Assembly: GCA_963806935.1 (NCBI GenBank)
Contig: CAWEAT010000011.1
Coordinates: 140,347-204,346 of the forward strand
From: an uncultured Alphaproteobacteria bacterium
Lineage (GTDB): Bacteria; Pseudomonadota; Alphaproteobacteria; Rhizobiales; Beijerinckiaceae
DNA length: 64,000 bases
Reading direction: 5' to 3'
In this document: in pieces, positions 2,066 to 63,341 of the stretch
Layout: every line of letters starts with the position of its first letter
Position numbering within the stretch: the stretch's first letter is position 1
The notes under the pieces: generated by a model
The model's database searches: none
What the model was told of the DNA's origin: nothing
The model's input: only the letters and a program-made list of their open reading frames with translations
Made by a program: the position numbers and the translations under genes

Positions 2066-2289
2066 CCGTTGAACGTCACTCCCCTTGACGGAGCCGACTT
2101 ACCGCCGCCACAAAGAATTTGAGAGGCTGGCGCCAATCACAGCCCTTGTCGAGGCCTCTTAGGCGTCGTGGATGGAGCGGACGTCAATCCCGACAGCCTG
2201 GCGCGCGTGCGCTCGCCCGAAAACGGCTACAGGTCCGTGACCTTCGCCAAGGACGTCGAAGCATCGATGCGAATCAGCGGCAGCGAGCG

Positions 2290-31331: not shown

Positions 31332-31342
31332 GACCGGCGGCG

Positions 31343-32263: not shown

Positions 32264-32769
32264 GGAGAGCTCCATCCTGAGTGAGGTTCGCAACGCCTCG
32301 ATCTCAGGACGGGGCTCTCCGTAGCGCCATCGCTATTCTATCCGCCTGCTACCCAGCCTCCCGGCTCACGCCACCCCGCGCAGCGGGGCCGGAGCGGAGC
32401 GACTTCGTGCTTTGTGCAGGTTTTTGGACGCCGGCGGGGCCGATCTCTGCGGGCGCTCGGACGGCCGGCGTCCAAAAAGCGCCAGGGCACGAAGTCGCGG
32501 TCAGCCGGGGCGGCGGCTGGGAGTCGAGCGCTATGGGGATTTCAGGGTGGCGGCGCATTCGTTGAAGGCGGGACACCGGGGCGACGCGACCCGAATGCCT
32601 GCATGTGGCGGCGGGCGAGGGAGAGGAAGAAGCGTTCCGGCAGGGTCTGAGGGGTATCGACGGGCGCCTGGCGGATGGATTGCCCGGAATCGGGTCGAGA
32701 GGGATCGCCGCCGGCGTGGAGCCAGTGCAAGGGAACGGCAAAGCGGCGGCGCTGACAGGCGGGTCTGGC

Positions 32770-33981
32770 TCATGACGTGTCGTTTGTGCCCGGCGTCGGC
32801 CGCCACCTCGGCTCGCAGCCGCGCGCGAAGACCTCGATGACGATCATGCGGGCGCCGCAGCGCGGGCATGGGCAGGGCGCCGCGCGCGGCGCGTCCGGCG
32901 TGACGTCCGGCTGCGGTTGCGGGTCGGCGGCGGGCGGGTCGGCGCCGAGCAGCGCGCGGGCGGTCGCGATGTTCTCGGCTCGCTTGGCGTTGGCGAAGAG
33001 CCCGTAATGGCGGATGCGGTGGAAGCCCCTGGGCAGCACGTGCAGGAGAAAGCGCCGGATGAACTCGTGGGGATGAAGCCGCATCGTCTTCCAGCGGTCC
33101 GGCCCGGCGATGCGAGTATCCTTCCAGCGGAACGCGACGCCGGCGTCGTCGGCCGCGACGATGCGGCGGTTCGAGATCGCGACCCGGTGGGTGTAGCGGG
33201 AGAGATAGCGCAGCACCTGCTTGGGCCCGGCGAACGGCGCCTTGCAGTAGACGACCCACCTGATGCGCCGCAGCGGGGCGATGAAGCGCTTGAACGCGGT
33301 CTTGTCGGCGAGCCCGGCGTGCGCGTTGAAGAACGTCAACCGGCCGGCGTCGTGGGCGTCCGCGAGCATCGCCAGCATCCTGCCGCTGAACAGGCGCGCC
33401 AGCAGGTTGACGTGCACGAGGAAGTCGGAGCGGCAGGCGACCCATCGCGACCCGTCGGGCGACAACCCTCCGCCGGGCACGATCATGTGCACGTGCGGAT
33501 GATGGGTGAGGGTCGAGCCCCAGGTGTGCAGCACGGCGGTGACGCCGATCCTGGCGCCGAGGCGCCTGGGATTGGCGGCGATGGCGAGCGTCGCCTCGGC
33601 CGCCGCCTTCATCAGGAGGTCGTAGATCACTCGTTTATTCTGCCAGGCGATGTCGCGCAGCTTGCCCGGCAGCGTGTAGACGACGTGAAAGTACGGGACC
33701 GGCAGCAGCTCCGCTTCCCGGTCGGCCAGCCATCGGCGCGACGCCGCAGCCTGACACTTCGGGCAATGCCGATTCCGGCACGAGTTGTAGGCGACGTGCG
33801 TGTGGCCGCACGCCGCGTTCTCGCAGCGCGCCACGTGGCCGCCGAGCGCCGCCGTGCGGCAGCGCTCGATTGCGCTCATCGCCTTGAGCTGGTCGAGGCT
33901 CGCGTGACCGCGGTTGGCCTCGCGCCAGGCGGGACCGTGCTCGCGGAAGATGTCCGCGAGCTCCAGAACGGGCCGAACCAT
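32770..33981 (-). CDS. IS91-family transposase, copy 2
   Basis: Protein identical to 30120-31331. Confidence 0.9.
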   Translation of the reverse strand: MVRPVLELADIFREHGPAWREANRGHASLDQLKAMSAIERCRTAALGGHVARCENAACGHTHVAYNSCRNRHCPKCQAAASRRWLADREAELLPVPYFHVVYTLPGKLRDIAWQNKRVIYDLLMKAAAEATLAIAANPRRLGARIGVTAVLHTWGSTLTHHPHVHMIVPGGGLSPDGSRWVACRSDFLVHVNLLARLFSGRMLAMLADAHDAGRLTFFNAHAGLADKTAFKRFIAPLRRIRWVVYCKAPFAGPKQVLRYLSRYTHRVAISNRRIVAADDAGVAFRWKDTRIAGPDRWKTMRLHPHEFIRRFLLHVLPRGFHRIRHYGLFANAKRAENIATARALLGADPPAADPQPQPDVTPDAPRAAPCPCPRCGARMIVIEVFARGCEPRWRPTPGTNDTS

Positions 33982-33992
33982 GACCGGCGGCG

Positions 33993-34913
33993 CTATCGCG
34001 CCGGCGGCTTCTCGAGGTTCCGCGTGGCCTGCCTGTGGCGCGGCGTGATCAGGCGCGCGATCGGGCTCTCGACCTTGGCGATGAGGCCCGTCGCCACGCG
34101 GGTGTAGCGCGCCGTCGTGTCCAGCTTCTCGTGTCCGAGCAACGCCTGGATCAGGCGAATATCCTTGCCGTCCTCGAGCAGGTGGGTCGCGAAGGAATGA
34201 CGCAGCGAATGAAGGGAGACCGCCTTGCGCAGCCCCGCCGCTTTCGTCGCGTCCTTGAACAGCCGGCCGAACTGGCGCGTCGTCAGATGACCGGCGCGAC
34301 CGGGAAAAAGCCAGCGCTGTTGCGGCGTCACGCCGGCGTCACGCCGTTTCGGCCGCGCCTTCCACCATTGTCGCAGCAGGTCGAGGATCTCGGGCGGAAG
34401 CATCACGTTCCGGTCCTTGCGGCCTTTCGACTGCACGACGCGAATGATCATCTGGTCGCTGTCGATGTCGCACACCCGCAGCCGCGTCACCTCGCTGGCC
34501 CGCAGCCCGCAGCCATACGCGACCGACAGCATCGCCCGCGCCTTGAGGCTCGTCGCCATGGTCAGGACGCGCCTGATCTCCTCGGGGCTCAGCACCGGCG
34601 GCAGCTTCAGCGGCTCCTTCATGTGCCAGATCTCGGCCGCCAGGTCGTGGCGGCGCAGCGTGACCCGGAACAGGAAGCGCACCCCGGTCACGATCCGGTT
34701 GCGGTTGCAGATGCTCGCGCCGCTCTCGACGAGGTGCAGTTGGAAGAGGCGCACCTCGTCCGCCGTCGCCGTGTCCGGCGAACGCCCGAGCCAGGCGGCG
34801 AACCGCTTGCAGCTGGAAAGGTGGCCGCGTTGCGTGTGCGGGTCGAGCTTGCGCGCGGCCATGTCGTCGATCATACGCTGACGCAGTGGGCTGACAGTGT
34901 CGGTCTTGCTCAT
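33993..34913 (-). CDS. Tyrosine recombinase, copy 2
   Basis: Protein identical to 31343-32263. Confidence 0.9.
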   Translation of the reverse strand: MSKTDTVSPLRQRMIDDMAARKLDPHTQRGHLSSCKRFAAWLGRSPDTATADEVRLFQLHLVESGASICNRNRIVTGVRFLFRVTLRRHDLAAEIWHMKEPLKLPPVLSPEEIRRVLTMATSLKARAMLSVAYGCGLRASEVTRLRVCDIDSDQMIIRVVQSKGRKDRNVMLPPEILDLLRQWWKARPKRRDAGVTPQQRWLFPGRAGHLTTRQFGRLFKDATKAAGLRKAVSLHSLRHSFATHLLEDGKDIRLIQALLGHEKLDTTARYTRVATGLIAKVESPIARLITPRHRQATRNLEKPPAR

Positions 34914-35199
34914 GGAGAGCTCCATCCTGAGTGAGGTTCGCAACGCCTCGATCTCAGGACGGGGCTCTCCGTAGCGCCATCGCTATTCTATCCGCCTGCT
35001 ACCCAGCCTCCCGGCTCACGCCACCCCGCGCAGCGGGGCCGGAGCGGAGCGACTTCGTGCTTTGGCGCAACGGACGCCTTGAGCCGAAGTCCGCTTTGTT
35101 GCGCATCCCTTCCGTTGCAGGGACGGGCTGGATCGTCTGCAAACGGACGGGCTGGATCGTGTGCAAAGTGTGGAACTTTCGCGTTGGACGCTGGGCCAA

Positions 35200-35700: not shown

Positions 35701-35745
35701 AGCAATATATCCTTTTCGGAAGATAGCCGACTTGTAGTTGCAAAC

Positions 35746-37127
35746 TGAACTGGACCCCATTCGTGGGACCGCGGGGGGTTGGATTTAAGGTGTAATCTCG
35801 CCTGCCCTTGTCCTTCAATAATCAAGCCGCCTGTTGCTGCTTCTGCTTTTGCTGTGGGCATGTGGGCAACGCGTTTGCGTTGTCCAAGCGAAGCGGCATA
35901 TCCACAGCCCTCGCCGCCGCCTCGATTTTGTCCATGCCGGCCCGCCACACCGCCATCGGCATCTGGTTGTTCATCGCCTGGTGCGGGCGTCGAAAATTGT
36001 AAAAACTCATCCAGGAACCGATGCCGGCCCGCGCCTCGCGGCCATCGGCGTAGGCTTTCAGATGCACCTCTTCATACTTGATTGAGCGCCACAGCCGTTC
36101 GATGAAAATGTTGTCCATGAAGCGGCCGCGTCCGTCCATCGAAATTGCGCCGCCAGCCGCCGCGAGCCTGCCGGCGAAAGCCTCGGCGGTGAAAGTGGAG
36201 CCCTGATCGGTATTGAAAATCCGTTCCGAACCGAAGCATCGCCTCCTCCAGCGCCGCCGCGCAGAAGCTCGCATCGTTGGTGTTCGACAGCCGCCATGCC
36301 AGAACCGCCCGGCTTGCCCAGTCGATGATCGCCGCCAGATAGAGGAAGCCGCACGCCATCGGGATAAAGGTCACGTCGGCCGCCCACACGTGGTTCGGCT
36401 CGACAATCTTCAGGCCGCGCAGCAGGTAAGGGTATATCTTGTGCTCGGGCGCGGCTTTGCTCGTGCCAGGGCGTGGAACCAGCGCCTCGATCCCCATCAC
36501 CCGCATCAGCCGCCGCACGCGCTTGCGGTTGACTCCACGGCCTTTCTTGTTGAGTTCGAAGGTCATTCGCCGCGAGCCGTAGAACGGAAGTTCGAGATGC
36601 AGTTCGTCGATCCGGCGCATCACCGCCAGATCGTCCACGCTGGTGACGGGCTTAGGGCGGTAGACCCCCGAGCGCGCCACGCCCACAAGCGCGCATTGAC
36701 GGCGCACCGACAGGTCCTTGCCAGGCCGTTCGACCATCGCTCTTCGATCGGGCGCGCTCATCGCCCTGGCCTCCTGGCCAAGAAATCCCGTTCGACCGTC
36801 AGTTGGCCGATCTTGGCGTAAAGCTTGACCGTCTCGCGCTCGCGCTCCTCCTCGCCATCGCCCGAACCGCTCGCTCCTCGCGCGAACAGGCTCGCGACGT
36901 TGTCAAGAACCTGCTTCTTCCAGGCATAAATCTGGTTAGGATGCACCCCGTGCCGCTTCGCCAGTTCCGGAACCGTCGCATCCTCGCGCAGCGCCTCAAG
37001 CGCAATCTTCGCCTTGAACGCCGCATCAAACTTCTTGCGTGACTTCGTCATGTCTCGCTCCATCGGTTGCGACAGAGCAGGACATTTCACACCCTAGCCT
37101 ATGGTCCTAAATCCGGGGTCCAGCTCA
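35746..37127 (-). mobile_element. IS3-family element, copy 1 (1382 bp), orfB frameshifted
   Basis: IRs TGAACTGGACCCC / GGGGTCCAGCTCA, 3-bp TSD AAC; orfA 36758-37051 (HTH), orfB rve (WAADVT, NTDQGS, ERLWRSIKYE). Confidence 0.92.
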
Positions 37128-37339
37128 AACAGCGCGAGGAAACCAACGCGAGTTTTGCAGTTGCCCGCGCAGGCCGCGCATCTTCTGCAGAGTGCGAACA
37201 CAATAATCTCCAAGCTGTCCCGATGAATTAAGCAAATAACAGTCGCCGGCAGCGAAGACGAGAAGACGGTTGGTCCAGAGCGCGCAGCGCAGCAATGTGT
37301 GACAGGCGCCCAGAGGTCGAGAACCGATGGCACGCCGAG

Positions 37340-37435
37340 TGGCGAGAGCGGCCTTTCGCAGGCGGCCGCGGCTCGGTTGTTTGACACGACGCCGAAGACC
37401 GTCGCGAAGTGGATCGGGTGGTTTGAAGCCGAGGG
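37340..37435 (+). pseudogene. IS481-family N-terminal HTH remnant
   Basis: GLSQAAAARLFDTTPKTVAKWIGWFEAEG, cut by the IS256 end. Confidence 0.6.
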
Positions 37436-37703
37436 GGGAGTGTCAGGAATCTTGTGCGTGGGGCCATAATCGCACCGATGGAGGGCGAGAATGGCGATCA
37501 AGAAGGACACGTTGGATGATCTTCTGGCGGGGCGCGACCCGAAGGCTGTGTTTTCGAAGGACGGTCTTTTCGATGAGCTGAAGAAGGCTTTGGTGGAACG
37601 AGTGCTGAACGCTGAGCTGGACGACCATCTTGACCATGATGCAGCGGAGGGGTCGCGGAACCGTCGCAACGGCTATTCGAAGAAGACGGTCCTGACGGAG
37701 ACG
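37436..37703 (+). mobile_element. IS256-family 5' fragment
   Basis: GGGAGTGTCAGGAATCTTGTG end; MAIKKDTLDDLL...ERVLNAELDDHL...NRRNGYSKKTVLTE then truncated. Confidence 0.8.
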
Positions 37704-38013
37704 GCGGATCCCATTTCTCTACCCGCGGAAGCCATGACGGTGGCCCCCGCGGAATAGGTCGGCAAGCTCTGCATCGCGCAAGGTCCGCTTCGCGCGTTCG
37801 TCTGTGAAGCAATCTCTGGGAGAGCGTCCATGCGGCGTTGCCGTCCGAACAAAAGGAAACTGCGCAAAACCGACATTTCGGTGTCGTTTATTGCGCCTCC
37901 CTCTCCGATAGAATTTGGACGGCGGCTGCCGAAGTCTCCCTCGCCAATGGGTGGTGGATGACCCCGCGACGAAATGGGGGCAATCCTTTGCGCCGCAACT
38001 GAGGCTGAGCGCC

Positions 38014-38348
38014 ATGAGCAACAGCTCCTTCGAGAGCTCCGAACCACAACTTCAAGATCTTTTGGGGGAGCCGATTGTTCGCTTGATCATGCAGGCTGAC
38101 AACGTCGACGAGCGTAGGCTGCGTACCCTTATTGAGCAAACCGCGGCGCGCATAAGAAAATGGGGCGATGTCCCGCGCCTGGCAAAGGACTCCCAGGGGG
38201 ACAAGTCGACGCAATCGGATGACGGTTACCGCCTCGGCGTAGGGATCATGCTGCTCAACAGCCGAGGCAATATCTTTGTCGGCCAGCGAATCGACGTGAA
38301 TGAAGAGGCTTGGCAGATGCCGCAGGGCGGCGTTGAGGAAGGGGAAGC
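38014..38348 (+). pseudogene. RppH-like Nudix hydrolase with N-terminal extension, truncated by IS3
   Basis: [20 protein letters not shown]...[13 protein letters not shown] ends inside the Nudix box at the IS3 IR. Confidence 0.75.
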
Positions 38349-39730
38349 TGAACTGGACCCCATTCGTGGGACCGCGGGGGGTTGGATTTAAGGTGTAATC
38401 TCGCCTGCCCTTGTCCTTCAATAATCAAGCCGCTTGTTGCTGCTTCTGCTTTTGCTGTGGGCATGTGGGCAACGCGTTTGCGTTGTCCAAGCGAAGCGGC
38501 ATATCCACAGCCCTCGCCGCCGCCTCGATTTTGTCCATGCCGGCCCGCCACACCGCCATCGGCATCTGGTTGTTCATCGCCTGGTGCGGGCGTCGAAAAT
38601 TGTAAAAACTCATCCAGGAACCGATGCCGGCCCGCGCCTCGCGGCCATCGGCGTAGGCTTTCAGATGCACCTCTTCATACTTGATTGAGCGCCACAGCCG
38701 TTCGATGAAAATGTTGTCCATGAAGCGGCCGCGTCCGTCCATCGAAATTGCGACGCCAGCCGCCGCGAGCCTGCCGGCGAAAGCCTCGGCGGTGAAAGTG
38801 GAGCCCTGATCGGTATTGAAAATCCGTTCCGAACCGAAGCATCGCCTCCTCCAGCGCCGCCGCGCAGAAGCTCGCATCGTTGGTGTTCGACAGCCGCCAT
38901 GCCAGAACCGCCCGGCTTGCCCAGTCGATGATCGCCGCCAGATAGAGGAAGCCGCACGCCATCGGGATAAAGGTCACGTCGGCCGCCCACACGTGGTTCG
39001 GCTCGACAATCTTCAGGCCGCGCAGCAGGTAAGGGTATATCTTGTGCTCGGGCGCGGCTTTGCTCGTGCCAGGGCGTGGAACCAGCGCCTCGATCCCCAT
39101 CACCCGCATCAGCCGCCGCACGCGCTTGCGGTTGACTCCACGGCCTTTCTTGTTGAGTTCGAAGGTCATTCGCCGCGAGCCGTAGAACGGAAGTTCGAGA
39201 TGCAGTTCGTCGATCCGGCGCATCACCGCCAGATCGTCCACGCTGGTGACGGGCTTAGGGCGGTAGACCCCCGAGCGCGCCACGCCCACAAGCGCGCATT
39301 GACGGCGCACCGACAGGTCCTTGCCAGGCCGTTCGACCATCGCTCTTCGATCGGGCGCGCTCATCGCCCTGGCCTCCTGGCCAAGAAATCCCGTTCGACC
39401 GTCAGTTGGCCGATCTTGGCGTAAAGCTTGACCGTCTCGCGCTCGCGCTCCTCCTCGCCATCGCCCGAACCGCTCGCTCCTCGCGCGAACAGGCTCGCGA
39501 CGTTGTCAAGAACCTGCTTCTTCCAGGCATAAATCTGGTTAGGATGCACCCCGTGCCGCTTCGCCAGTTCCGGAACCGTCGCATCCTCGCGCAGCGCCTC
39601 AAGCGCAATCTTCGCCTTGAACGCCGCATCAAACTTCTTGCGTGACTTCGTCATGTCTCGCTCCATCGGTTGCGACAGAGCAGGACATTTCACACCCTAG
39701 CCTATGGTCCTAAATCCGGGGTCCAGCTCA
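38349..39730 (-). mobile_element. IS3-family element, copy 2 (1382 bp), no matching TSD
   Basis: Same IRs and ORFs as copy 1; flanks AGC versus TCG; differs from copy 1 at two positions seen. Confidence 0.92.
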
Positions 39731-45882: not shown

Positions 45883-47916
45883 ATGAAGCGGCTCGTTGTC
45901 GGCGGCATGGCGGTTGTTGTGGGTCTCGGAGCCGCGCTTTGGGTCCTGACGCCGCCGTCTGCGCCGACGTCGATGCTAGCGCCTCCAGCGCTTGATGATG
46001 CGACCGTCGCGCGCGGGGCCTATCTCGCGCGGCTCGGCGATTGCGGCGCCTGCCACACCAGCGAAGGCGGCAAGGAGATGGCCGGCGGCCTCGCATTTGA
46101 CACCCCGATCGGCCGCATCTATTCGACCAACATCACGCCCGATCCGAAGTCTGGCATAGGCGGATACACGCTCGCCCAATTTGAGGGGGCCCTCCGGCGC
46201 GGCGTCAACGCCAATGGCGCAAATGTGTATCCCGCGATGCCCTACCTGTCATTCGCCAAGATTAACGACGACGACGTTAAGGCGCTCTACGCGTACTTCA
46301 TGAAGGGGGTGGAGCCGGTCGAGCAGGCGAACAAGCCCAACGAAATGAGGTTCCCCTTCAACATCCGACTCGGGCTTGGACTCTGGAGGACCGCCTTTCT
46401 GAACAATCGTCGATTCGCTGAAGATTCGTCCAAGGACGAGCAGTGGAATCGTGGCGCTTACATCGTCGAGGGGCTCGGCCATTGCGGCGCTTGCCACACG
46501 CCGCGCGGCATGGGCATGCAGGAGACGGCAACGAGCGAGGATGGCAAGTCCTACCTCTCGGGTTCGACCATCGCGCCGTGGCGCGCAGTCAGTCTTCGCA
46601 ATTTGTGGAGCGAAAAGGAGGTTGTCCAATTCTTGAAAACCGGCGCCAATGCTCATGCCGCCGCCTACGGAAACATGACTGAAGTCGTGCACGACAGTAC
46701 GCAGTATTATACCGACGCCGACCTCGCCGCGGTCGCACACTTTCTGAAATCTCTCTCGACCGACGAAGCCGCGCCGACCATCGCGGCAGAAGCGATTCCG
46801 GAAACCCTCTTTACGACTCGTGGAGGGCTCGGCTACGACCAGTTTTGTTCCTCGTGCCATCAGCGGGACGGGCGCGGCGCGCCCGGCGTCTTCCCGCCGC
46901 TCGCGGGCAATGATTCCGTACTGTCCGACGATCCGATCTCCGTCATTCATGTCGTGCTGACCGGCTGGACGGAGGCGGCGACGCAGTTTTCGAAGCACGC
47001 ATTCGCTATGCCCGAATACAGTTCGCTTAGCGACGCGGAGCTTGCGGAAATCCTGACCTTCGTGCGCACGAGTTGGGGCAACAAAGGCGAGGCGGTCACC
47101 GCCGCGCAGATCAAGGAGCAGCGCGACGCGCTTGCCCCCGTGTCGACCGCGCCAGCGAAATTCTCGGCGGCGCGCTTCGCCGAGATGCTCGCGGCGCCGA
47201 ACGCCGATCAACTCATCCTCGGCATGCGCCTCATGACGGAAACGAAGACCCTCCTGCCCGATCATGTCGGCAACGAGATGAGCTGCGCCAGCTGCCATCT
47301 GGACGGCGGCACCGTCGCTATGGGCTCGCCCTTCAACGGCGTCGCGGCTCTGTTTCCGATGAACAACCCTCGGGCAGGACGGGTCATTTCTCTCGAGGAG
47401 CGGCTCAACGGCTGCTTCTTGCGCTCGATGAACGGGACACGGCTTGCCGACGATTCCAAGGACATGAAGGCCATGATTGCGTTCGTGGCGTGGATGAAGG
47501 GCGATGCGGCCGCGAACGGCAAGATCCCGGGGCGCGGGATCGGCGCGGTGAACGCCGGGCTCATCCCCGATCCGGTTCGCGGCAAAGCGCTGTTCGAGAC
47601 GAACTGCGCCGTCTGCCACGGATCTGATGGGCAAGGCATGAAATCCAGCGACGGCGGCTGGCTCTTCCCGCCGCTTTGGGGCAACGCCTCATTCAACATC
47701 GGCGCTGGAATCGCGCGGACGTTCACCGCCGCGTCCTTTGTCAAGGCGAACATGCCGATCGCGCACACGACCAAATATCCGCAGGGTCAGGGCGGCCTCT
47801 CCGATCAGGACGTTGTCGACATCGCTGAGTACTTCACCCATCAACCGCGACCGGATTTCCCCGCCAAGGTCAGCGACTGGCCGAAAGGGGGAAAGCCTAA
47901 GGATGCAAGATATTGA
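45883..47916 (+). CDS. Five-heme c-type cytochrome: membrane-anchored triheme domain fused to a TsdA-like thiosulfate dehydrogenase
   Basis: CxxCH x5 (CGACH, CGACH, CSSCH, CASCH, CAVCH); TsdA signatures [27 protein letters not shown]. Confidence 0.85.
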
Positions 47917-47924
47917 CGATCGAC

Positions 47925-48015
47925 GCCCTCCGCAGTGCTGCGATGTTGCCGCATAGGCCGTGCGACCGCCCTTGAACACGGCCGAGCCGGCGACCAGAGC
48001 CTCGGCCCCGTTGGC
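47925..48015 (-). pseudogene. C-terminal fragment of ribulose-phosphate 3-epimerase (cbbE/rpe)
   Basis: [20 protein letters not shown](ANIAALR with one indel). Confidence 0.65.
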
Positions 48016-48204
48016 GATCATATAGGCGATTGCCTTGTCGGCGGCTTCACCTTCCATTTTGCCGAAGCCCATCGTGCCGACCTGGATGCCCGAGGTGCCC
48101 TGCAGTCGCGCCATCTTGGCGAGGACAAACCCGGTGTAGCCGCGCTTCGACCGCGGCGAGGTCACGGCTCCGTGGCCGGCGTGGTGATAGTGCAGATACT
48201 GCTT
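48016..48204 (-). pseudogene. cbbM: Internal fragment of form II RuBisCO (cbbM)
   Basis: [59 protein letters not shown] matches the form II segment as recalled ([53 protein letters not shown]). Confidence 0.85.
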
Positions 48205-48209
48205 AAGGC

Positions 48210-48992
48210 TCAGAGGCCCCGCGCAGACACGTAGACGCCGACGGCCACGACCGCCGAGCCGAACACAATTCGCAACGCGCCTCTCCGCTTCGCAAGAGCC
48301 CCGGCAAGTCTCACTCCGACCGCACCGCCTGCGAGGCCGCCCGCGATAAACAGCGCCGCGATCCGCCAGTCGACCAGACCGGAGACGGCGTAGCTGGCGG
48401 CAGTCGTCGCGCCGAAGGCGGCGACCGAAACGAGCGAGGTGCCGATCGCCGCGACCATCGGCATGCCGGTCGCCGCGATCAGGCCCGGCACGATCAGGAA
48501 TCCGCCGCCAATACCGAAGAATCCGGCGAGGAGCCCCACCCCGAACCCCATCGCGATCAACGGAGGGAGGAGACGTCCCGCTGTCGCCGAGGTAAGCTCG
48601 ACGTCGGCATGCTTGATCTTGCGCGGCCCTATCAGCATGACCGCTCCGACGACGATCATGAGCAGCCCGAACAAGAGCAGCAGACGTTGGCCGTCGACCA
48701 TTTTGGCGACGCTGGAACCGAAGAATGCGCCGAGGACCCCGGCTGTGGAGAAGACGCCCGCGCACGGCCATTTGACATTGCCCGAGCGCGCATGAGCCAG
48801 AAGATTGGCGATCGCGCTGATGCTGACCGCGATGGCGCTGGTCCCGATCGCGACATGAGGCGAAGGAACCCCGACGCCGTATACCAGCAACGGAACTGCA
48901 AGAACCGATCCGCCGCCGCCGACGAGGCCGAGAACCCCGCCGACGAGGCCTCCGACGGCCACCGTTGTAAAATCCGAGATCGACAACACCAT
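48210..48992 (-). CDS. TauE/SafE sulfite exporter family protein
   Basis: Repeated GxxxGxxGxGGG motifs ([14 protein letters not shown]; [14 protein letters not shown]), AIGTS. Confidence 0.88.
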
Positions 48993-49155
48993 CGATCCTC
49001 GCAAGGTCACAACTGGAGCTTGCAAATCAGAATCGCCCGAACCCGGTTCCGGCGCTCTCGCACTGAAAGCCCTCGAGGTGTTGCGACACCGTCTTGATGT
49101 CTTTGACCTTGCTGCGGCACGTGCGAACAATAGACCAAGGAGGACAAGTGCTCGA

Positions 49156-50445
49156 TCACGTGGTCTCGAATTCGACGGCCTTGAGCTTCTCGATCCCGAG
49201 CAGGTTGAGAGCCAGAGACTCGTAGAAAGGCTCGCTTTCGCCCTTGCGCATCTTGCGCAGGAAGTATTTCTCGAAGCCGATCTTGGCAGCGTGAACCCAC
49301 TTCCCCGAAGAGGACCAGTTGACGTTGCGCGGCGGAATCTGGGGCTGGGCGACGAAGGCGATACCCGAATCGCCGAAGTCGGCGAGGCACACCGCGTTCC
49401 AGGTGCCCTGGAACCTGGGCTTGGCGCCCCGCAGGATCTGCCCGAGGTTTCGAGCGGTCGCCGTCACCATCAATTCGATCATGAAGCCAGTCTTTGGCAC
49501 GCCGCAAGGCACCGGGGTGGGGCCGACCGGCGGGATCGCGACGCAGACGCCGACAGAAAAGACGTTCCGGAATGTTGGGTTCTGCTGGTGCTCGTCGACG
49601 ATAACGAAACCCCGCGGATTGACAAGTCCCTCCACGCCGCGCAGCGGCGCGATGCCGCGGAACGCGGGCAGGATCATCGAGAAGCCGAAGGGCAGTTCGC
49701 GGGTTGCCTTGACGGTGCCGTCATCGCCGACCTCCTCGACCGTCATCTTGCCCTGCTCGACTTTCTTGATGCGGGCGCTCGTGATCCACTTGATGTGATG
49801 ATCGCGCATCTCGCTTTCGAGCAGGCCTTTCGTATCTCCGACCCCGTCGAGGCCGAGGTGGCCGATGTAGGGTTCGGCGGTGACAAAGGTCATCGGGACC
49901 TTGTCGCGGATTTTGCGGCGGCGCAGTTCGGTCTCGAGAATGAACATGAACTCGTAAGCAGGTCCAAAGCAGGACGCGCCCTGCGCGGCGCCGATCACGA
50001 CCGGACCGGGGTCCTTGCAGAACGCCTCGAAATTGTCCGCCGCCTTCTCGGCATGGTCGATGTGGCAGATCGAGTTCGTGAAGCCGTCGGGGCCGAGCCC
50101 TTCGACTTCATCGAACGCCAGTTCGGGCCCTGTCGCGATGATCAGGTAATCGTACCGGATCGACGAACCGTCCGCCGTCTCGACCGTGTTCTCCTTTGGC
50201 GACGCTTTCGCCACCGCGCTCGGCTTGAAGCCAATTCCGCGCTTGGCGAATGTCCGCGCGAGATCAACCTGAATCAACTCGCGCGTTCTCCATCCGACTG
50301 GAACCCACGGATTGGACGGAACGAAATGATAAAGCGGATCCTTGGTGACGACAGTCAGCCTGTCCTCAGGGCGCATCTGATCCTTCATCTCGTAGGCCAT
50401 GATCGCGCCGCTGAGCCCGGCGCCCATGATCACGATGTCAGCCAT
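49156..50445 (-). CDS. sqr: Sulfide:quinone oxidoreductase, type I (SqrA-like)
   Basis: GAGLSG FAD site, FVPSNPWV, SICH, ASCFGPAYE, VPKTGFMIE, AVCLADFG; close to R. capsulatus SQR as recalled. Confidence 0.93.
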   Translation of the reverse strand: MADIVIMGAGLSGAIMAYEMKDQMRPEDRLTVVTKDPLYHFVPSNPWVPVGWRTRELIQVDLARTFAKRGIGFKPSAVAKASPKENTVETADGSSIRYDYLIIATGPELAFDEVEGLGPDGFTNSICHIDHAEKAADNFEAFCKDPGPVVIGAAQGASCFGPAYEFMFILETELRRRKIRDKVPMTFVTAEPYIGHLGLDGVGDTKGLLESEMRDHHIKWITSARIKKVEQGKMTVEEVGDDGTVKATRELPFGFSMILPAFRGIAPLRGVEGLVNPRGFVIVDEHQQNPTFRNVFSVGVCVAIPPVGPTPVPCGVPKTGFMIELMVTATARNLGQILRGAKPRFQGTWNAVCLADFGDSGIAFVAQPQIPPRNVNWSSSGKWVHAAKIGFEKYFLRKMRKGESEPFYESLALNLLGIEKLKAVEFETT

Positions 50446-50543
50446 CTGTTTCTCTCCCCATACGGAACCGTTCAGTGGCCCAGCTGATTTTCGCCGAAAC
50501 CCTCGTTATTCTATAATATCTGAATTCGTCAATATTTAATGCT

Positions 50544-51620
50544 GGCGCTTATAGCGATACCTGTTGATATATGAAGGCTGAAGAGTTCGTCGTTTTCGGG
50601 CGTTGGGCGGCTGAGCGTCGAGCAACGCCGGGAAGTGGCGGCCGCTTTGGCGAATCTGGATGGCGGGCTCAGACGGGCGGGAGAAACGGAGGCCTCCGCG
50701 GCCGGCGGGGCGAGGTACAACGGCGCGCAGCGGGGTCGTCGTGCGGATGCTTTGGGGACGAGCGGCCATGAGCGCGTGGCGAGCCAAGGCTGTCCCCATT
50801 GCGCAGGACGAGCGATCGTCGCCTGGGGACGCTCGCATGGGCTTTCGCGGTTCCGCTGCAAGAGCTGCGGGCGCACCTTCAATGCGCTCACCAAGACGGC
50901 GATGGCGCATCTGCACAAAAGGGAGCGTTGGTTCGACCACGCTCGGGCGATGATCGAGGGCAAAAGCCTGGCCAGGACGGCCGAGCTTTGCGGAGTGCAT
51001 CCGACGACGGCGTTTCGCTGGCGGCATCGGTTTCTGAGCGCTCCGGGCGCCGACAAGCCCAGAAAACTGAGCGGAATCGTCGAGGTGGACGAAACCTTCA
51101 TCCTTGAATCCTTCAAGGGCCGGTGGTCTGATCTGCCGCGCAAGGCTTAGCAAACGGGGCGGGCCGGCCAGGCATCCGGGCCTCCATTCGGACAACATTC
51201 CCGTTCTCGTCGCCCGCGACCGGCGGGGCGCGACCTTCGACGCAGTCCTGCCGCACGACGACAGCGCCTCGATCGGAGCGGCGCTGGCCGGCGTCGTGAC
51301 GGGCGAAAATATCTCATCGGCGACGGCGGGAAGGCGATCGCCGCCTTCGCCCGCAAAGCCAACATCCCCTTTCACGCCGTGCCTGCGCCGGGCAAGCCGA
51401 CCGCCGAGGCGCCTCACCTCCACATCAACAACGTCAACGCCTATCACGGCCGCCTCAAGCAGTGGCTCAATCGCTTCAACGGCGTCGCCACCAAGAACCT
51501 GCCCAACTATCTTGGCTGGCGCCGCGCTCTCGAAGCCTGGGGCGATCAAGCCACGCCCCAGACCTGGATCAAGGGCGCAATCGGAAACGGCCCATATCAA
51601 CAGGTACCGCTATAAGCGCC
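50544..51620 (+). mobile_element. IS1595-family element, transposase decayed
   Basis: 27-bp IRs GGCGCTTATAGCG(A/G)TACCTGTTGATAT; TSD TTAATGCT/TTAATGCC; Zn ribbon CPHC...RFRCKSC, VEVDET, HINNVNAYH; several frameshifts. Confidence 0.9.
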
Positions 51621-51769
51621 TTAATGCCGATCTGCAACAAATTGTCCATTGCAAGGGGTCTTCGCCTGTTGATTTCCACTGAGAGGTGACCCGGGCGCCA
51701 CGGGTTTTTCCACCGAGAACTGACCCATGTTCGAACCCTTCCCCCTTGGCCTAGGCGGGGGACGATGGA

Positions 51770-53311
51770 GTGATCGACATGGAGTTACTGAGCGTCATCC
51801 GACGCTGGCACTGCCGGGACCATTTCTCGATCCGAGAGATATCGCGGCGCACGGGGCTGTCGAGGAACACAGTCCGCAAATATCTGCGCTCGGACACCGT
51901 TGAACCGAGGTTCAACATCCCTGACCGCCCGAGCAAGCTGGACCCTTACGCCGACAAGCTGTCGCATATGCTGCGGCAGGAGGCGGGGAAGTCCCGCAAG
52001 CAGAAGCGGACGACCAAGCAATTGCACGCCGATCTGGCCGCCCTCGGTTACGACGGCTCCTACAATCGCGTGGCGGCCTTCGCTCGCGACTGGAAGGCCG
52101 CTCGGCAACAGGAACAGAAGACGTGCGGCCGCGGCGTGTTCGTGCCGCTGGCGTTTTTGCCGGGCGAGGCGTTCCAGTTCGACTGGTCGGAAGATTGGGC
52201 GATCATTGCCGGCGAGCGAACCAAGCTGCAGGTCGCTCACTTCAAACTGTCCTGCAGCCGCGCCTTCTTCCTCCGGGCCTACCCGCAGCAGACCCACGAG
52301 ATGCTGTTCGACGCCCATAACCACGCCTTCCGCGTGCTGGGCGGCGTTCCCCGGCGAGGCATCTACGACAACATGCGCACTGCGGTCGACAAAGTCGGGC
52401 GCGGCAAGAACCGCCAGGTCAACGCACGGTTCGCAGCCATGGTCAGCCACTTCCTGTTCGAGGCGGAGTTCTGCAATCCGGCGTCCGGTTGGGAGAAGGG
52501 GCAGATCGAGAAGAACGTCCAGGACGCCCGCCATCGGCTCTGGCAGCCCATGCCCAGCTTCCCCTCCCTGGCGGCGCTGAACGACTGGCTGGAGATGCGA
52601 TGCAGGGAGCTGTGGGAGCAGACGCCGCACGCCTCGCATCCTGGCGCGATTGCCGACGCCTGGGCCGAAGAGGTCCAGCATCTGATGCAGCCTTCGCGCC
52701 CGTTCGACGGCTTCGTCGAATACGCCAAGCGCGTGTCGCCGACGTGCCTGGTCCATCTGGACCGCAATCGCTATAGCGTGCCGGCCTCCTTCGCCAATCG
52801 TCCAGTCAGCGTACGAGTTTATCCCGAACGCATCGTTGTCGCCGCCGAGGGACAAGTCGTCTGCGAACATCGCCGCGTTTTTGCCCGCTCCCACCAACGC
52901 AAGAGCACGACCACCGTTTTCGACTGGCGGCACTATCTGGCGGTCATTCAGCGCAAACCGGGCGCACTCCGCAACGGCGCGCCGTTCGCCGAACTCCCGC
53001 CTGCCTTCCGTGCCTTGCAACAGCGCATGCTCAAGACGCCGGGCGGCGACCGCGAGATGGTCGAGATTCTGGCTCTCGTCCTCCAGCATGACGAGCAGGC
53101 CGTGCTCACTGCCGTCGAACTGGCTCTGGAGGCCGGCGTGCCGACCAAGACGCACATTCTGAACCTGCTGCACCGATTGATCGACGGCAAGCCGATCGAC
53201 CCACCAGCCGTGAAGCCGCCTAATGCTTTGACCCTCACCACCGAACCGCAGGCCAACGTCGAACGCTACGATGCGCTGCGCAAGGCTCGAGAGGCGCGCC
53301 ATGCGTCATAA
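51770..53311 (+). CDS. istA: IS21 transposase IstA
   Basis: [22 protein letters not shown]. Confidence 0.92.
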
Positions 53312-54095
53312 TCCCGCCGCCGGCGCCGTCGTCATCATGCTGCGAACCCTCAAGATGCACGGTATGGCTCAGGCGGTCGGCGAGCTGACCGAGCAAGGCT
53401 CCCCGGCCTTCGAAGCCGCAGTGCCGATCCTGTCGCAGCTTCTGAAAGCGGAGACGGCCGATAGGGAGGTGAGATCGACGGCCTATCAGCTCAAGGCCGC
53501 CCGCTTTCCGAACTATCGCGACCTTGCCGGCTTCGACTTCGCCAGCAGCGAGGTCAACGAGGCGCTCACACGTCAACTCCATCGTTGCGAGTTCCTGGAA
53601 GACGCCCACAATGTCGTCCTGGTCGGCGGCCCCGGCACGGGCAAGACGCATCTCGCCACCGCGATCGGCGTCCAGGCGATCGAGCATCATCGCAAGCGCG
53701 TCCGCTTCTTCTCCACCGTCGAACTCGTCAACGCTCTCGAACAAGAGAAGCTTCAGGGCAAGCCAGGACAGATCGCCGCCCGGCTCACTCACTCCGATCT
53801 CGTCATCCTCGACGAGCTTGGCTACCTGCCGTTCAGCGCCTCCGGCGGGGCGTTGCTCTTCCATCTGCTGAGCAAGCTCTACGAGCGTGCCAGCGTCATC
53901 ATCACAACCAATCTCAGCTTCGGCGAGTGGGCAACCGTGTTCGGCGACCCGAAGATGACGACCGCTCTACTCGATCGTCTCACCCACCGCTGCCACATTC
54001 TCGAAACCGGAAACGACAGCTTCCGCTTCAAGAACAGCTCGGCGAAAGCCGCCAAACCCGCAAAGGAGAAACCTCGAAACTTGACGAACGCCTGA
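53301..54095 (+). CDS. istB: IS21 helper ATPase IstB
   Basis: [30 protein letters not shown]. Confidence 0.92.
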
Positions 54096-54169
54096 TCCCA
54101 AAACCATCATCAAGCCGGGTCAGTTCTCAATGGAAATCCCGGGTCAGTTCTCGACGGAAATCGACATTC

Positions 54170-54430
54170 GCCTTCAGCGTGCCGGCGAAGTCGATTTCTG
54201 TCAGCACTGTGCGTGCGCCTTGCTGAACGCGCTGCGCGAGCGCATGCCGGAGTAGCAGATCAGCACCACCCGTTTTTCGGAAGGCATGCGCTGCGGGTTG
54301 AGGGCGGCATGTTGAGCGACCTCGGCATATGCGCCGAGGCGAACTCGTGCGCCTCGCGCACGTCGACCACGCACTTGCCGGCCTCGACGGCCTGCTCGAA
54401 TTCCTCATGTTCGATTGTCCGCGGATCGGG
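54170..54430 (-). pseudogene. Rhodanese-like sulfurtransferase remnant
   Basis: IEHEEFEQAVEAGKCVVDVREAHEFASAHMP.SLNMP, then after a frameshift EKRVVLICYSGMRSRSA active-site loop; abuts IS21. Confidence 0.75.
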
Positions 54431-54482
54431 TCCAGACCGATCTTTTTTAAGTCAACCTTCGGTCTTCCACATGAAATATCAT

Positions 54483-58447: not shown

Positions 58448-60031
58448 CTATCGCGCTGCGGACAGGAGCCGGCGGCAGGTCTGCATAAGCTCTGGAGCGG
58501 CGACGGGCTTGCTCAGAAAAATACTGTCCGGGACACGACGGCCATCGACGCTCGGCCCCGCGGAGGCATAAATCACGGAAAGCAAGGGGTGCAGCGCTCG
58601 GGCGGCTTGCGCCACATCCCACCCCGTCGTGCTGTCGGCGAGGGCAATGTCGGTGACGAGGCCATCGATGGTCTTGATTTGCGTAAGCAACTGGAACGCG
58701 CCAGCGCCGGTAGCGGTCTCCAGCACCGTCAGGGCATGATCATGAATCGTTAACATGCGAGCAAGGCGGTTCGGAACTGGGGGTTGATGGCGGCTTTGAG
58801 GCGTTTTCGCTTGATGGGGATTTGGGTTGGCTCGCGGGTGAGGATATTGAGGGCGGCGTGGCGGATCACGGCCAGATTGATTGCGGCGCAGTCCTTGCGC
58901 ATTCGGCATTCATCCTCGCGGAAAGTCACATCGAGCCGCCAATGCAAGTTGTTCTCGATGCTCCAATGCGACCGGCAAGCGGTGAGCAGCAGGGCCGGAT
59001 CGGGCGGCAGGGAGGAGATAAAGAGCCGCGTCTCGGTCGAGGTCGCGCCGGTCTTCTTGTCGGTCCGCGTTGCGCTGATCGCGACAATGGAGCGCAAATC
59101 CGCCCATCGCGGATGCCGTTCGGCGAGCCAGGCTGCGTCGGCGGCGCGGGCCAGGCGATCCTCGATCCGTCCATGCCCGGCTTCGATCCGCCGGCATTGC
59201 GGACAGGCCGAAGCGAGCGCCGGATCGGCGAAGAAATCCGCCACATCGGCGCAAAGGGAGCCCTGGTTGTTCTTCAGCGTGAGGAGGTAGTCGGCCTTTT
59301 TGGCGAGGATCGTCCTGGCGATGGCCTCTTGCGTCCCGATCGCGTCGATGGTGACGATCGCCCCTTCGATCGCCAGCATGCCGAGAAGCTCGGGGATGGC
59401 GGTGATTTCGTTGCTCTTGGCTTCGACCGCCCGGGCGGCCAGCACCAGGCCGGCCTCGTGCGCATAGGCCGACACGACATGCACGGCGCCCGCCCCGCTC
59501 TTGTCCCGCTTCGTGCCGCGCAAGGTCTTGCCGTCGATCGCCACCACGCCCGACACCTTCGCCTTGAGGCTGGCGACCCAACCCGAAAAGGCTCGCTCAA
59601 GCGCCTTCGGATCGAGCGCCCGCAGAACTCGGCGCAAGGTCTGCGCCGGCGCGACGCCATGGCGAAAGGGAAGAAACCGACGCAACCAATCAAGCTGCTC
59701 CTCGCCGAACATCGCGATCTCGTCGAAATCCTCCGTCCGGCACAAAAGACCAGTCAGAACGGTCAGCAGCACCTCGTCCAGGGGGTAAGTCGTCATTCCG
59801 GGGATGCGGTGATCCTCAACCGTCTTGATGTGATCCAAAAACGTCATGCCCATCGCCGATCTCCTGCTTCGGCGACTTGAATCCTTTTCCCCCCTCAGGG
59901 CATTAACGATTCATGATTCCGCCTGCCAGCACCGTCCATCCTTCTTGTCGAAATCCGTCGGCGAGATCCTCACGCAGGAACCAGTCATCCTCGACAACCA
60001 GCGCGGTCAGGCCTTGGAAAGCATCCCTCAT
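58448..60031 (-). pseudogene. Single-domain response regulator split by ISAs1
   Basis: 5' part MRDAFQGLTALVVEDDWFLREDLADGFRQEGWTVL joins in frame to ETATGA...LVTDIAL...GWDVA...SKP once the IS and one TSD are removed. Confidence 0.85.
58730..59925 (-). mobile_element. ISAs1-family element, copy 1; transposase ORF 58750-59853
   Basis: IRs CAGGGCATGATCATGAAT / ATTCATGATTCCGCCTG; 10-bp TSD CCAGCACCGT; AIDGKTLRG, KSNEITAIP, RSHWSIEN.LHWRLD. Confidence 0.93.
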
Positions 60032-60446
60032 AGACGAGCTCCGCCGGTGCCTAGCTGGGAGAAGGCTTCGGTGTCGAAACGCGAGAACCGGCGCGATCGT
60101 TCCGGGATCTCGCGGTCAAGGGCAGGGCGCGGCGGCTTTTCGATGACCGGCGGCGCGAAGAGGGGAACGCGGGTCGAGGAGGGTCGGCGCCCAAATTCCT
60201 AAAGGCTGCGCGGGTCCTTCCCGCCGCCCCCCCGCGCGTCGCAAGGCGGGGGTATTCCGATAATCCGGTCGCGGGACGCTCGTTGGGTCAACCTGGTCCA
60301 GCGACCCAGGGCGGATTTCTTTCCACACGCGCAACCTACGAGGCGCCCCGCCCTTGCGGCGGCGCCGCCGTTCCCCTAACCGACCGACTGAAGCGGGGGC
60401 AGGGCGCGAGCGACCACCCGCGCACCCTCCCTAATTTGAAGACCCC

Positions 60447-61517
60447 ATGATCTCAGCCCTCCGACCCCGCCGCCTGACCGGCCCCCAAGCTCTCATCGAC
60501 GCGGGGCTGGCGGCGCCGGCGCAGCTCGCCGAACTCGCGGCGATCGCCGATCGCTACGCCATCGCGCTGACCCCGGCCTTCGCCGCCCTCATCCGGCCCA
60601 AGGATCCCGCTGACCCGATCGCGCGTCAGTTCGTGCCCGACCCGCGCGAACTCATCCGCGACCCCGCCGAGCGGGACGATCCGATCGGCGACGACGCCAT
60701 GAGCCCCGTGAAGGGTTTGGTGCACCGCTATCCCGATCGCGTGCTGATCAAGCTCGTCGCCGTTTGCGCGGTCTATTGCCGCTTCTGCTTTCGCCGCGAG
60801 CGGGTGGGTCCGGGTTCGGGGTCGCTCAGCGCGGCTGACTTCGCCGCGGCGCTGGAGTACGTGCGCGGCCGCCCGGGGATTTGGGAGGTCATACTCACCG
60901 GCGGCGATCCCCTGACTCTGTCGCCGCGCCGCATCGCCGAGGCGACCAAGGCGCTCGCGGCGATCCCTCATGTTAAGGTGCTGCGCTGGCACACGCGCAT
61001 GCCCGTCGCCGCGCCGGAGCAGGTGACGAAAGCGGTGGCGCGCGCTCTCAGGGTCGAAGGCAAGACGACGGTGGTCGCGGTTCACGCCAACCATCCGCGC
61101 GAACTCACCCAAAGCGCCCGCGCCGCCTGCCGTCGCCTGGCTGGCCAAGGCGCAATGCTGGTCAGCCAGAGCGTCCTGTTGAAGGGGGTCAATGACGATG
61201 CTGAAACACTCATCGATCTGATGCGCGCTTTCGTCGAGGCGGGTGTCAAGCCTTACTATCTCCATCACGGCGACCTCGCGCCGGGCACCGCGCACTGGCG
61301 CGTTCCGATCGCCAGGGGGCAGGAGTTGATGCGGATCTTGCGCGCCCGTCTGTCGGGGCTGGCGGCGCCGAACTACATGCTCGACATCCCCGGGGGCCAT
61401 GGCAAGGCGCCGATCGGGCCGCAATGGATTCATGGCGGCGGCAACGGAGAGCATGTCGTCACCGACCCTCAGGGAGTTGAACACGTTTACGCCGATCGGC
61501 TGGGCGCGGACGGATAG
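60447..61517 (+). CDS. KamA/EpmB-family radical SAM enzyme (lysine 2,3-aminomutase-like)
   Basis: HRYPDRVL, CAVYCRFCFRR, ILTGGDPL, QSVLLKGVND, PYYLHH, DIPGGHGKAP. Confidence 0.9.
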   Translation: MISALRPRRLTGPQALIDAGLAAPAQLAELAAIADRYAIALTPAFAALIRPKDPADPIARQFVPDPRELIRDPAERDDPIGDDAMSPVKGLVHRYPDRVLIKLVAVCAVYCRFCFRRERVGPGSGSLSAADFAAALEYVRGRPGIWEVILTGGDPLTLSPRRIAEATKALAAIPHVKVLRWHTRMPVAAPEQVTKAVARALRVEGKTTVVAVHANHPRELTQSARAACRRLAGQGAMLVSQSVLLKGVNDDAETLIDLMRAFVEAGVKPYYLHHGDLAPGTAHWRVPIARGQELMRILRARLSGLAAPNYMLDIPGGHGKAPIGPQWIHGGGNGEHVVTDPQGVEHVYADRLGADG

Positions 61518-61894
61518 CCTCGGTTCTTCAGATTGCAGCACTTGCCCAGCAATCAAGGGACGACACAAATTGAGCGCCCGCCGGGCGCCCCCTTGAGCCA
61601 CGGTCTTCGCACCCCGCCCGCGCCAAGGGATAGAGGATGAACCCGACGTTATAGGCCAGCAAGGCGGCCAACGAGCCTAGAGCCTGGCTTACCTTTGGAT
61701 TGACGCGCCCGGCGATTGACGCCTCGTCCTGGCGCGGCCGTTCACGCCTTGCGCCTCCATTTCGCGACGGGTCCGGGCGTCGGATCGGGCGCGCCGCGCA
61801 GCCTTGGCCCCGTCACGGATCCCGGGACAACCAGGGCGCGAGCCTCCGCGACAGCCACTGAAAACAAAACGCTCGCAAACGCTAGTAAACGGGC

Positions 61895-61934
61895 ATAAAC
61901 GTTAGTAAAATAGCTTGCATTTACTAACGTTTAT
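61895..61934. repeat. Perfect 15-bp AT-rich inverted repeat
   Basis: ATAAACGTTAGTAAA-10nt-TTTACTAACGTTTAT. Confidence 0.85.
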
Positions 61935-62100
61935 TTTTGCGAATCGAGCTTTTTCAAGGGGTTGCGAGCGATCCAAATAAAAAATTTCTTCCTCGCTTCC
62001 CGGCTCGCGCGCCGGTTGTGGTTGAGCCAGCCTTTTCAAATAGCCGCGGCTTCTTCCCCGTCAGCCTGGCTGACCGGGCGCAAGATAGGACTCCGTAGAA

Positions 62101-62132
62101 GAACATATAGAGAACATTACTGCTCTTGTCAA
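62101..62132 (-). promoter_or_regulatory. Leftward sigma70-type promoter overlapped by a LexA box
   Basis: Minus strand TTGACA-17nt-TATATG; GAAC-ATATAGA-GAAC at 62101-62115. Confidence 0.6.
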
Positions 62133-62144
62133 GGGAAAAGTCCC

Positions 62145-63341
62145 CAGGGCATGATCATGAATCGTTAACATGCGAGCAAGGCGGTTCGGAACTGGGGGTT
62201 GATGGCGGCTTTGAGGCGTTTTCGCTTGATGGGGATTTGGGTTGGCTCGCGGGTGAGGATATTGAGGGCGGCGTGGCGGATCACGGCCAGATTGATTGCG
62301 GCGCAGTCCTTGCGCATTCGGCATTCATCCTCGCGGAAAGTCACATCGAGCCGCCAATGCAAGTTGTTCTCGATGCTCCAATGCGACCGGCAAGCGGTGA
62401 GCAGCAGGGCCGGATCGGGCGGCAGGGAGGAGATAAAGAGCCGCGTCTCGGTCGAGGTCGCGCCGGTCTTCTTGTCGGTCCGCGTTGCGCTGATCGCGAC
62501 AATGGAGCGCAAATCCGCCCATCGCGGATGCCGTTCGGCGAGCCAGGCTGCGTCGGCGGCGCGGGCCAGGCGATCCTCGATCCGTCCATGCCCGGCTTCG
62601 ATCCGCCGGCATTGCGGACAGGCCGAAGCGAGCGCCGGATCGGCGAAGAAATCCGCCACATCGGCGCAAAGGGAGCCCTGGTTGTTCTTCAGCGTGAGGA
62701 GGTAGTCGGCCTTTTTGGCGAGGATCGTCCTGGCGATGGCCTCTTGCGTCCCGATCGCGTCGATGGTGACGATCGCCCCTTCGATCGCCAGCATGCCGAG
62801 AAGCTCGGGGATGGCGGTGATTTCGTTGCTCTTGGCTTCGACCGCCCGGGCGGCCAGCACCAGGCCGGCCTCGTGCGCATAGGCCGACACGACATGCACG
62901 GCGCCCGCCCCGCTCTTGTCCCGCTTCGTGCCGCGCAAGGTCTTGCCGTCGATCGCCACCACGCCCGACACCTTCGCCTTGAGGCTGGCGACCCAACCCG
63001 AAAAGGCTCGCTCAAGCGCCTTCGGATCGAGCGCCCGCAGAACTCGGCGCAAGGTCTGCGCCGGCGCGACGCCATGGCGAAAGGGAAGAAACCGACGCAA
63101 CCAATCAAGCTGCTCCTCGCCGAACATCGCGATCTCGTCGAAATCCTCCGTCCGGCACAAAAGACCAGTCAGAACGGTCAGCAGCACCTCGTCCAGGGGG
63201 TAAGTCGTCATTCCGGGGATGCGGTGATCCTCAACCGTCTTGATGTGATCCAAAAACGTCATGCCCATCGCCGATCTCCTGCTTCGGCGACTTAAATCCT
63301 TTTCCCCCCTCAGGGCATTAACAATTCATGATTCCGCCCTG
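62145..63341 (-). mobile_element. ISAs1-family element, copy 2; transposase ORF 62165-63268
   Basis: Same IRs; 10-bp TSD GAAAAGTCCC; protein identical to copy 1. Confidence 0.94.

Follow-up and report, generated by a model that had tools for sequence, protein, structure and literature searches.

The window, by which we mean the whole 64,000-nt stretch of DNA that was analysed, comes from a 4.9 Mb Roseiarcus metagenome-assembled genome (MAG; 92.9% complete). It carries a sulfur-oxidation module whose Pfam content comprises a solute-binding protein, two YeeE/YedE halves, a multihaem cytochrome c with a SoxA/TsdA domain, TauE and an SQR-like flavoprotein. Within this module, the gene for the sulfide:quinone oxidoreductase-like flavoprotein (SQR; 49156–50445, minus strand) lies upstream of tauE (48210–48992, minus strand), which encodes a 260-residue member of the TauE/SafE family, and tauE converges with the gene for the multihaem cytochrome c/TsdA fusion (45883–47916, plus strand). 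From stop to stop these convergent genes are separated by 293 nt, made up of 9 nt of join sequence and a 284-nt minus-strand fragment (47921–48204) that consists of two pieces of Calvin-cycle genes. The fragment follows tauE directly on the same strand, faces the TsdA fusion, and lies within a stop-free minus-strand frame that spans 48213–47903. Its first piece (48013–48204, minus strand) corresponds to 64 codons, 281–344, of the 460-codon form II RuBisCO gene (cbbM) of congeneric species. The second (47921–48012, minus strand) corresponds to about 31 codons, residues 191–221 of the 229-residue CbbE, or Rpe, of one congener (G029). A sequence-only reading of this DNA had placed the fragment at 47925–48204 with about 63 RuBisCO residues; the location stands, and the extent needed adjusting as given here.

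Profile, structure and pairwise comparisons assign the first piece to form II RuBisCO. The Pfam family RuBisCO_large (PF00016) matches residues 6–69 of the translated frame (E = 4.5e-20; 72.5 bits against a cut-off of 30.1), and the best match among solved structures is the Rhodopseudomonas palustris form II enzyme (4lf1, E = 1.3e-31), with form I and III chains scoring many orders weaker, and form IV chains far weaker, in the same structure-sequence search. The piece aligns without gaps to residues 281–344 of the Rhodospirillum rubrum enzyme (the 9rub match spans 282–345, E = 1e-27), and its homology breaks off sharply at 48204 and 48013 against all 12 relatives with an intact gene. In R. rubrum numbering, H287 and the loop-6 residue K329 are kept and positions R288 and H321 are covered. 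Both substitutions described in the earlier reading, HYHR to HYHH and GIH to GIQ, are present. H321 is changed to Q (CAG, 48084–48082) in every copy of the fragment, and the R288H change (at 48182 and 48184) is private to the window variant, one short-read contig agreeing at both bases. R288 and H321, whose roles we take to be those generally ascribed to them in the R. rubrum enzyme, are invariant in 13 intact relatives and both are altered here. A full-length functional CbbM of about 460 residues also has an N-domain, a complete barrel, a carbamylated lysine and its metal ligands, and the fragment lacks this complement.

The second piece (approximately 48010–47937) aligns with the 3′ end of cbbE in six congeners at 78–84% identity (blastn, E = 6e-9 to 2e-14; 1e-8 to 2e-14 over all comparisons with congeners) and shares a protein motif with their CbbE, which identifies it as Rpe/CbbE sequence. 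PF00834 gave no match at E ≤ 1 on this 31-residue tail because it is too short for Pfam. The tail lacks the last 8–14 codons of the gene; it is unlike the host's own housekeeping rpe (VFEGGANAYAGNIRAIRDAA) and matches cbbE motifs, and over about 75 nt the stand-alone rpe genes of some congeners match it as well as cbbE does (83–89%). The in-frame union of a form II RuBisCO piece with an Rpe tail, as first proposed, is thus confirmed by Pfam, by structures 4lf1 and 9rub and by blastn against cbbE, both parts aligning significantly. Past the join, near 47952, every population copy lacks the same single nucleotide, which shifts the Rpe frame. Elsewhere in the host, one extra nucleotide in a T run (CGCAAGATTTCACATCGAG) breaks the only full-length rpe (G000 C26:22187–22835) in two. 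The probable cause is an error in the sequencing of the MAG and not a real frameshift, and single-base indels in this assembly therefore need population support.

Three illegitimate joins made the fragment. The first (J1; 48205–48212, minus strand) was located by comparison with tauE homologues: tauE homology runs to ...GGCCT, the 2–8 C-terminal codons of the homologues are absent, a TGA stop (48212–48210) stands at the join, and cbbM sequence starts 5 nt further on, at codon 281. At the second (J2; 48013–48017, minus strand), cbbM codon 344 passes into cbbE codon ~191 through a TCGCC microhomology within ATGA-TCGCC (48021–48013). TCGCC is present in both parents, as seen in cbbM of G426 and in cbbE of G029 and G382, and the span absent by comparison with intact relatives is 1001–1311 nt (1038 nt, in frame, in G426). 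The third (J3; 47914–47920, no strand assigned) was placed by comparison with TsdA homologues. Here the rpe remnant ends at 47921 (cbbE codon ~221), 4 nt from the native TGA stop of the TsdA fusion (47914–47916), whose C-terminal ...(D/N)(A/S)RY* is conserved in seven homologues with RY* invariant. Both outer joins sit at the extreme ends of the flanking genes.

Intact counterparts are found within the genus, which in the database's sense of Roseiarcus includes Roseiarcus fermentans (G382) and has 129 species representatives. Intact cbbM is present in 12 of these, and in 10 of the 12 carriers cbbE/rpe lies 60–280 nt downstream. The operon type in the cbbM-bearing congeners is cbbP-cbbT-cbbM-cbbE; in G426 it encodes phosphoribulokinase (PRK), transketolase, CbbM and CbbE, with a LysR gene upstream. 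Measured against these operons, the fragment is an adjacent cbbM-cbbE pair minus 1.0–1.3 kb, which upholds that part of the earlier view in which it is the remnant of neighbouring cbb genes with a deletion between them. From 48204 to 48013 the window is 83–89% identical in nucleotide sequence to congeners' cbbM, against at most 80% for other sampled families of the order, and this divergence resembles that of the module genes themselves (81–84% nucleotide identity to congeners' copies). Since the fragment is nearer to congeneric cbbM than to that of other families, a foreign origin is not needed, and the suggestion that the sulfur module came in from a photo- or chemolithoautotroph is not supported. 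In a tree of the 192-nt cbbM fragment, the population copies form one clade (support 100/99) inside an unresolved polytomy of cbbM sequences of the genus, and the stem of this clade does not exceed the tips of intact genes in length; because the sister group of the clade is not resolved with 192 nt, no donor species can be named. Taken together, the fragment is very probably a non-functional relic of a Roseiarcus-type cbbM-cbbE pair, encoding form II RuBisCO and ribulose-phosphate 3-epimerase.

Searches for further traces were negative. Screening the genus at the DNA level, with all 129 species included, revealed no second relic or intermediate, and blastn of the window against cbb loci returned the fragment as the sole match, with no other cbb remnant. 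A tblastx comparison of the window with the same loci was discarded, as it gave composition-driven noise everywhere. A degenerate pattern written across the cbbM/rpe junction had no matches in genome contigs. Two patterns for the GIQ variant had none in JGI metagenome contigs and also missed the known JGI copy (L072), so that these scans say little.

The same arrangement recurs in environmental DNA. Clustered at 90% identity, the TauE of the window groups with four other proteins, and nine further contigs from different soil samples (one JGI, six ENA and two Logan, short-read assemblies among them) share with the window the order SQR-tauE-293 nt-TsdA, all three joins and the 1-nt deletion, so that each of the 10 observed copies of the locus contains the fragment. 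Logan contigs assembled from the short reads of other runs cover J3 and J1 plus J2 without indels, and all runs containing the sequence are soil metagenomes. Relative to the window, the population contigs show 2.0–3.4% mismatch in the fragment against 1.0–1.5% in tauE and TsdA. Variants in the cbbM part are seven nonsynonymous to three synonymous, where the neutral expectation is 3.1:1 (ten variant sites only); among them are TAT→TAG in L080, H→R, G→A, and two that belong to the window itself, R288H and A→T. The cbbM fragment contains an 18-nt tandem duplication, GAAGGTGAAGCCGCCGAC, in two contigs (L078 and L079), at the equivalent of window position ~48054, and three contigs carry an extra 1-nt deletion. 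The fragment drifts neutrally in a species-level soil population.

Comparison with intact genes bears on the age of this decay. The dN/dS ratio of the fragment against intact congeners is 0.12–0.30 at a dS of 0.3–0.7, and that between intact genes has a median of 0.16; since the two are alike, most of the divergence predates inactivation. At positions that are otherwise invariant, the copies have just two amino-acid changes in common, H321Q and the Q/N→R change in SPQSK. With so few shared changes, the decay appears to be very recent. No start codon or ribosome-binding site was found for the fragment and its frame is one base off that of tauE; nothing upstream could express it. Truncated at both ends and without a start, with a shared 1-nt deletion, segregating disabling variants and a neutral substitution ratio, it is a gene relic, a known kind of thing and otherwise an ordinary decaying pseudogene. 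The sequence-only reading had called it invisible to standard annotation, which is mostly true, the exception being a frameshifted metagenome contig (L075) with one gene call that was tagged PF00016.

As the earlier reading had recommended, the host was checked for cbb genes of its own, and none was found beyond the relic, which is the sole PF00016 match in the genome. Congeneric CbbP gave no tblastn match, and the single match to the PRK family (PF00485) is weak (47 bits, in a 415-aa frame). There is no cbb-type transketolase, the only transketolase match being a 56% identical copy elsewhere, and no photosynthetic reaction-centre gene (Photo_RC). The combination of RuBisCO and phosphoribulokinase that makes a genome competent for the Calvin cycle is therefore missing from this one, although the absence of cbb genes elsewhere is not absolute because the genome is 92.9% complete. 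On another contig (C25:75179–83730), the host retains, at 77–84% nucleotide identity, the neighbours of the G426 cbb operon, one gene of the OTCase family and three more; conservation with G426 ends at the gene that adjoins the position of cbbE in that species.

Gene order around TsdA, SQR and TauE is fluid within the genus. One cluster (L081) runs DsrE-TusA-X-SBP-YeeE-YeeE-TsdA-SQR-TauE-ArsR with all genes co-directional, TsdA-SQR is co-directional in G354, G350 and G026, and ArsR-SQR-TauE stands alone in G367 and G355. In the population contigs, TusA and a DsrE-like gene lie upstream of the module genes. The TsdA operon closest to that of the window (81%; G370, L043 = G370:C74 2723–7565) is convergent with a cluster encoding NiFe hydrogenase small and large subunits. 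Downstream of the closest TauE homologues (73–77%) are other genes, including an ArsR-type regulator, and no cbb genes. Outside the population, the TsdA homologues that come closest (81% and 77%; P0128 and P0129) are uninformative on the relic because their contigs stop just past TsdA.

Several features of the surrounding DNA were also recorded. Homology to the population contigs upstream of SQR stops about 97 nt past the SQR start (~50542). Beyond this point the window, within 50446–54436, has a pair of HTH/zinc-ribbon transposase-like open reading frames and an IS21-type istA (rve, Mu-transposase C). In comparison with the population contigs it has lost the CMD gene and, before Cpn10/Cpn60, keeps no more than a rhodanese remnant (54210–54436). 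In L080 (ENA ERZ25039548 contig_80413, 1977–3413), the SQR allele is only 84% identical to that of the window and the TauE/relic/TsdA portion 98–99% identical; in this contig, SQR alone among the module genes has been replaced by recombination. Three long direct-repeat pairs of 99–100% identity (29763–35064, 35742–39364 and 58730–63268; spacings 2650, 2603 and 3415 nt) are either mobile elements or assembly duplications. A megablast search of 47000–49200 against PLSDB plasmids found no match.

How the relic came to lie between tauE and TsdA can be framed as follows. A parent cbb operon may have stood at this very spot, downstream of and co-directional with SQR-tauE, and would have collapsed through several deletions or a single multi-jump template-switching event; a deletion across the TCGCC microhomology at J2 would have removed the ~1.0–1.3 kb between cbbM and cbbE. 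Since no relative with a longer remnant, or with a cbb operon beside sulfur genes, was found, this history of the joins is one that we infer. The orientation shared with tauE and the retained order of the two pieces speak for it, and we consider it an even proposition that the parent genes lay here and were reduced by a single deletion or template switch or by a few of them.

A stronger version holds that a whole cbb operon between SQR-tauE and the TsdA operon formed a single island for sulfur-driven autotrophy, so that the relic records a functional linkage as well as a position. The relic points the same way as SQR-tauE, and the order and orientation of its two pieces are still those of the donor. 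Lithotrophy genes do cluster here, as the convergent NiFe hydrogenase operon of G370 illustrates, and the fluid gene order of the TsdA/SQR/TauE genes would accommodate such an arrangement. Against this, SQR, TauE or TsdA was found within ~10 kb of cbbM in none of the 12 cbbM-bearing congeners, no cbb genes occur in the related sulfur clusters examined, and the window holds no other cbb remnant. The small number of shared decay changes also means that three separate deletions would have had to follow one another in a short time. We place this version a little short of an even chance. The linkage between sulfur oxidation and CO2 fixation implied in the sequence-only reading is not supported by these congeners, and an intact cbbM-cbbE beside the sulfur cluster, which it proposed to look for, was not found among them; a past association of CO2 fixation with this module finds no support in any extant genome.

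The second alternative places a double-strand break or a rearrangement joint between tauE and TsdA, which end-joining or template switching would have closed with short stretches copied from a cbbM-cbbE locus elsewhere in the same cell; this donor locus would have been lost later. Such captures seem to have precedents in the window itself, where two other internal gene fragments without element ends interrupt otherwise continuous genes: an IS481-type rve piece inside a DUF6538 integrase frame that resumes beyond it (~19679–20379), and an antisense IS630-type HTH piece set between the Cache half and the HAMP-GAF half of a kinase (~27071–27574). Three Ku genes are present in the host, J2 shows microhomology, the outer joins fall at the very ends of the flanking genes, and no extant adjacency of cbb and sulfur genes was found. 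On the other hand, capture requires either two ordered events in the same orientation or a donor that already carried the deletion, the donor is absent from the genome, and both precedents derive from mobile elements and were checked by frames and domains only. The Ku genes and the end-less fragments make capture credible, not proven, and we hold it to be possible but doubtful. A broader extension, that the relic is one of several patches copied into joints by a repair process unusually active in this Roseiarcus lineage, we regard as unlikely.

A third possibility is that the fragment has been kept for a present role, whether it serves the convergent genes tauE and TsdA as a terminator, spacer or 3′ untranslated region or acts as a small RNA or a small protein. 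It is fixed in all 10 locus copies and is the sole DNA between two convergent genes. Yet terminator and promoter scans and an Rfam search of 47600–48500 detected no terminator-like hairpin and no RNA family, the population copies contain a stop codon, 1-nt indels and the 18-nt duplication, and the fragment diverges about twice as much as its flanks, which makes a present role very improbable. Finally, an assembly chimera or MAG contamination might be suspected, given that the host is a MAG whose own rpe has a 1-nt T-run frameshift resembling a sequencing error, but the same joins in nine independent contigs (JGI, ENA and Logan) and in short-read contigs that cross J1 plus J2 and J3 without indels rule out an artefact to all practical purposes.

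Whichever route produced it, the relic is a dated, unambiguous trace that a soil Roseiarcus, now heterotrophic and non-phototrophic, descends from, or exchanged DNA with, carriers of a form II RuBisCO operon. Since the host has no RuBisCO, phosphoribulokinase or reaction centres, the relic records the loss of the Calvin cycle in its lineage. The genus contains phototrophs, some of the cbbM-bearing species among them: pufLM occurs in 30 of the 129 species, comprising 6 of the 12 cbbM carriers and 24 of the 117 others. With cbbM in about 12 and pufLM in 30 of the 129 species, the relic helps to show that Calvin-cycle genes have been lost repeatedly there. It adds nothing on the function of the sulfur module and is no demonstration that sulfur oxidation powered CO2 fixation. 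Its wider value would lie in its being, together with the end-less fragments nearby, a product of one fragment-capturing repair process; if the patch reading were true, the patches would form a readable archive of genes that the cell once carried.

Set beside known systems, the relic resembles filler or templated insertions, of the kind made by Ku/LigD non-homologous end-joining (NHEJ) or microhomology-mediated break-induced replication, in consisting of short pieces of distant genes with microhomology and no transposon ends, and its host offers a similar setting, with Ku genes and two other end-less fragments nearby. It differs from them in that no donor locus is left and the event was not directly observed, so that the likeness is a lead only. 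With the relics of bacterial deletional decay it shares truncation at both ends, an internal deletion, a frameshift and neutral drift between genes under selection. Unlike typical examples, its decay is apparently very recent and all three joins hug functional boundaries, a feature that also fits a one-step complex rearrangement. Compared with form II CbbM (4LF1; 9RUB/5RUB), the RuBisCO piece is about 89% identical to the R. palustris protein and covers the HYHRAGHG, GIH and loop-6 GKMEGE motifs. However, it amounts to 14% of the protein, lacks the N-domain and the K191/D193/E194 metal site and carries H321Q and R288H; it cannot be an enzyme. In relation to the Roseiarcus cbbP-cbbT-cbbM-cbbE operons (G426, G029 and G382), the relic is without the 5′ 280 and last 116 codons of cbbM and the first ~190 and last ~8–14 codons of cbbE, and cbbP, cbbT and cbbR are wholly missing at its locus. 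In what is left, it is like these operons in the order of cbbM then cbbE, in their orientation and in sequence, at 83–89% identity for cbbM and 78–84% for the cbbE tail.
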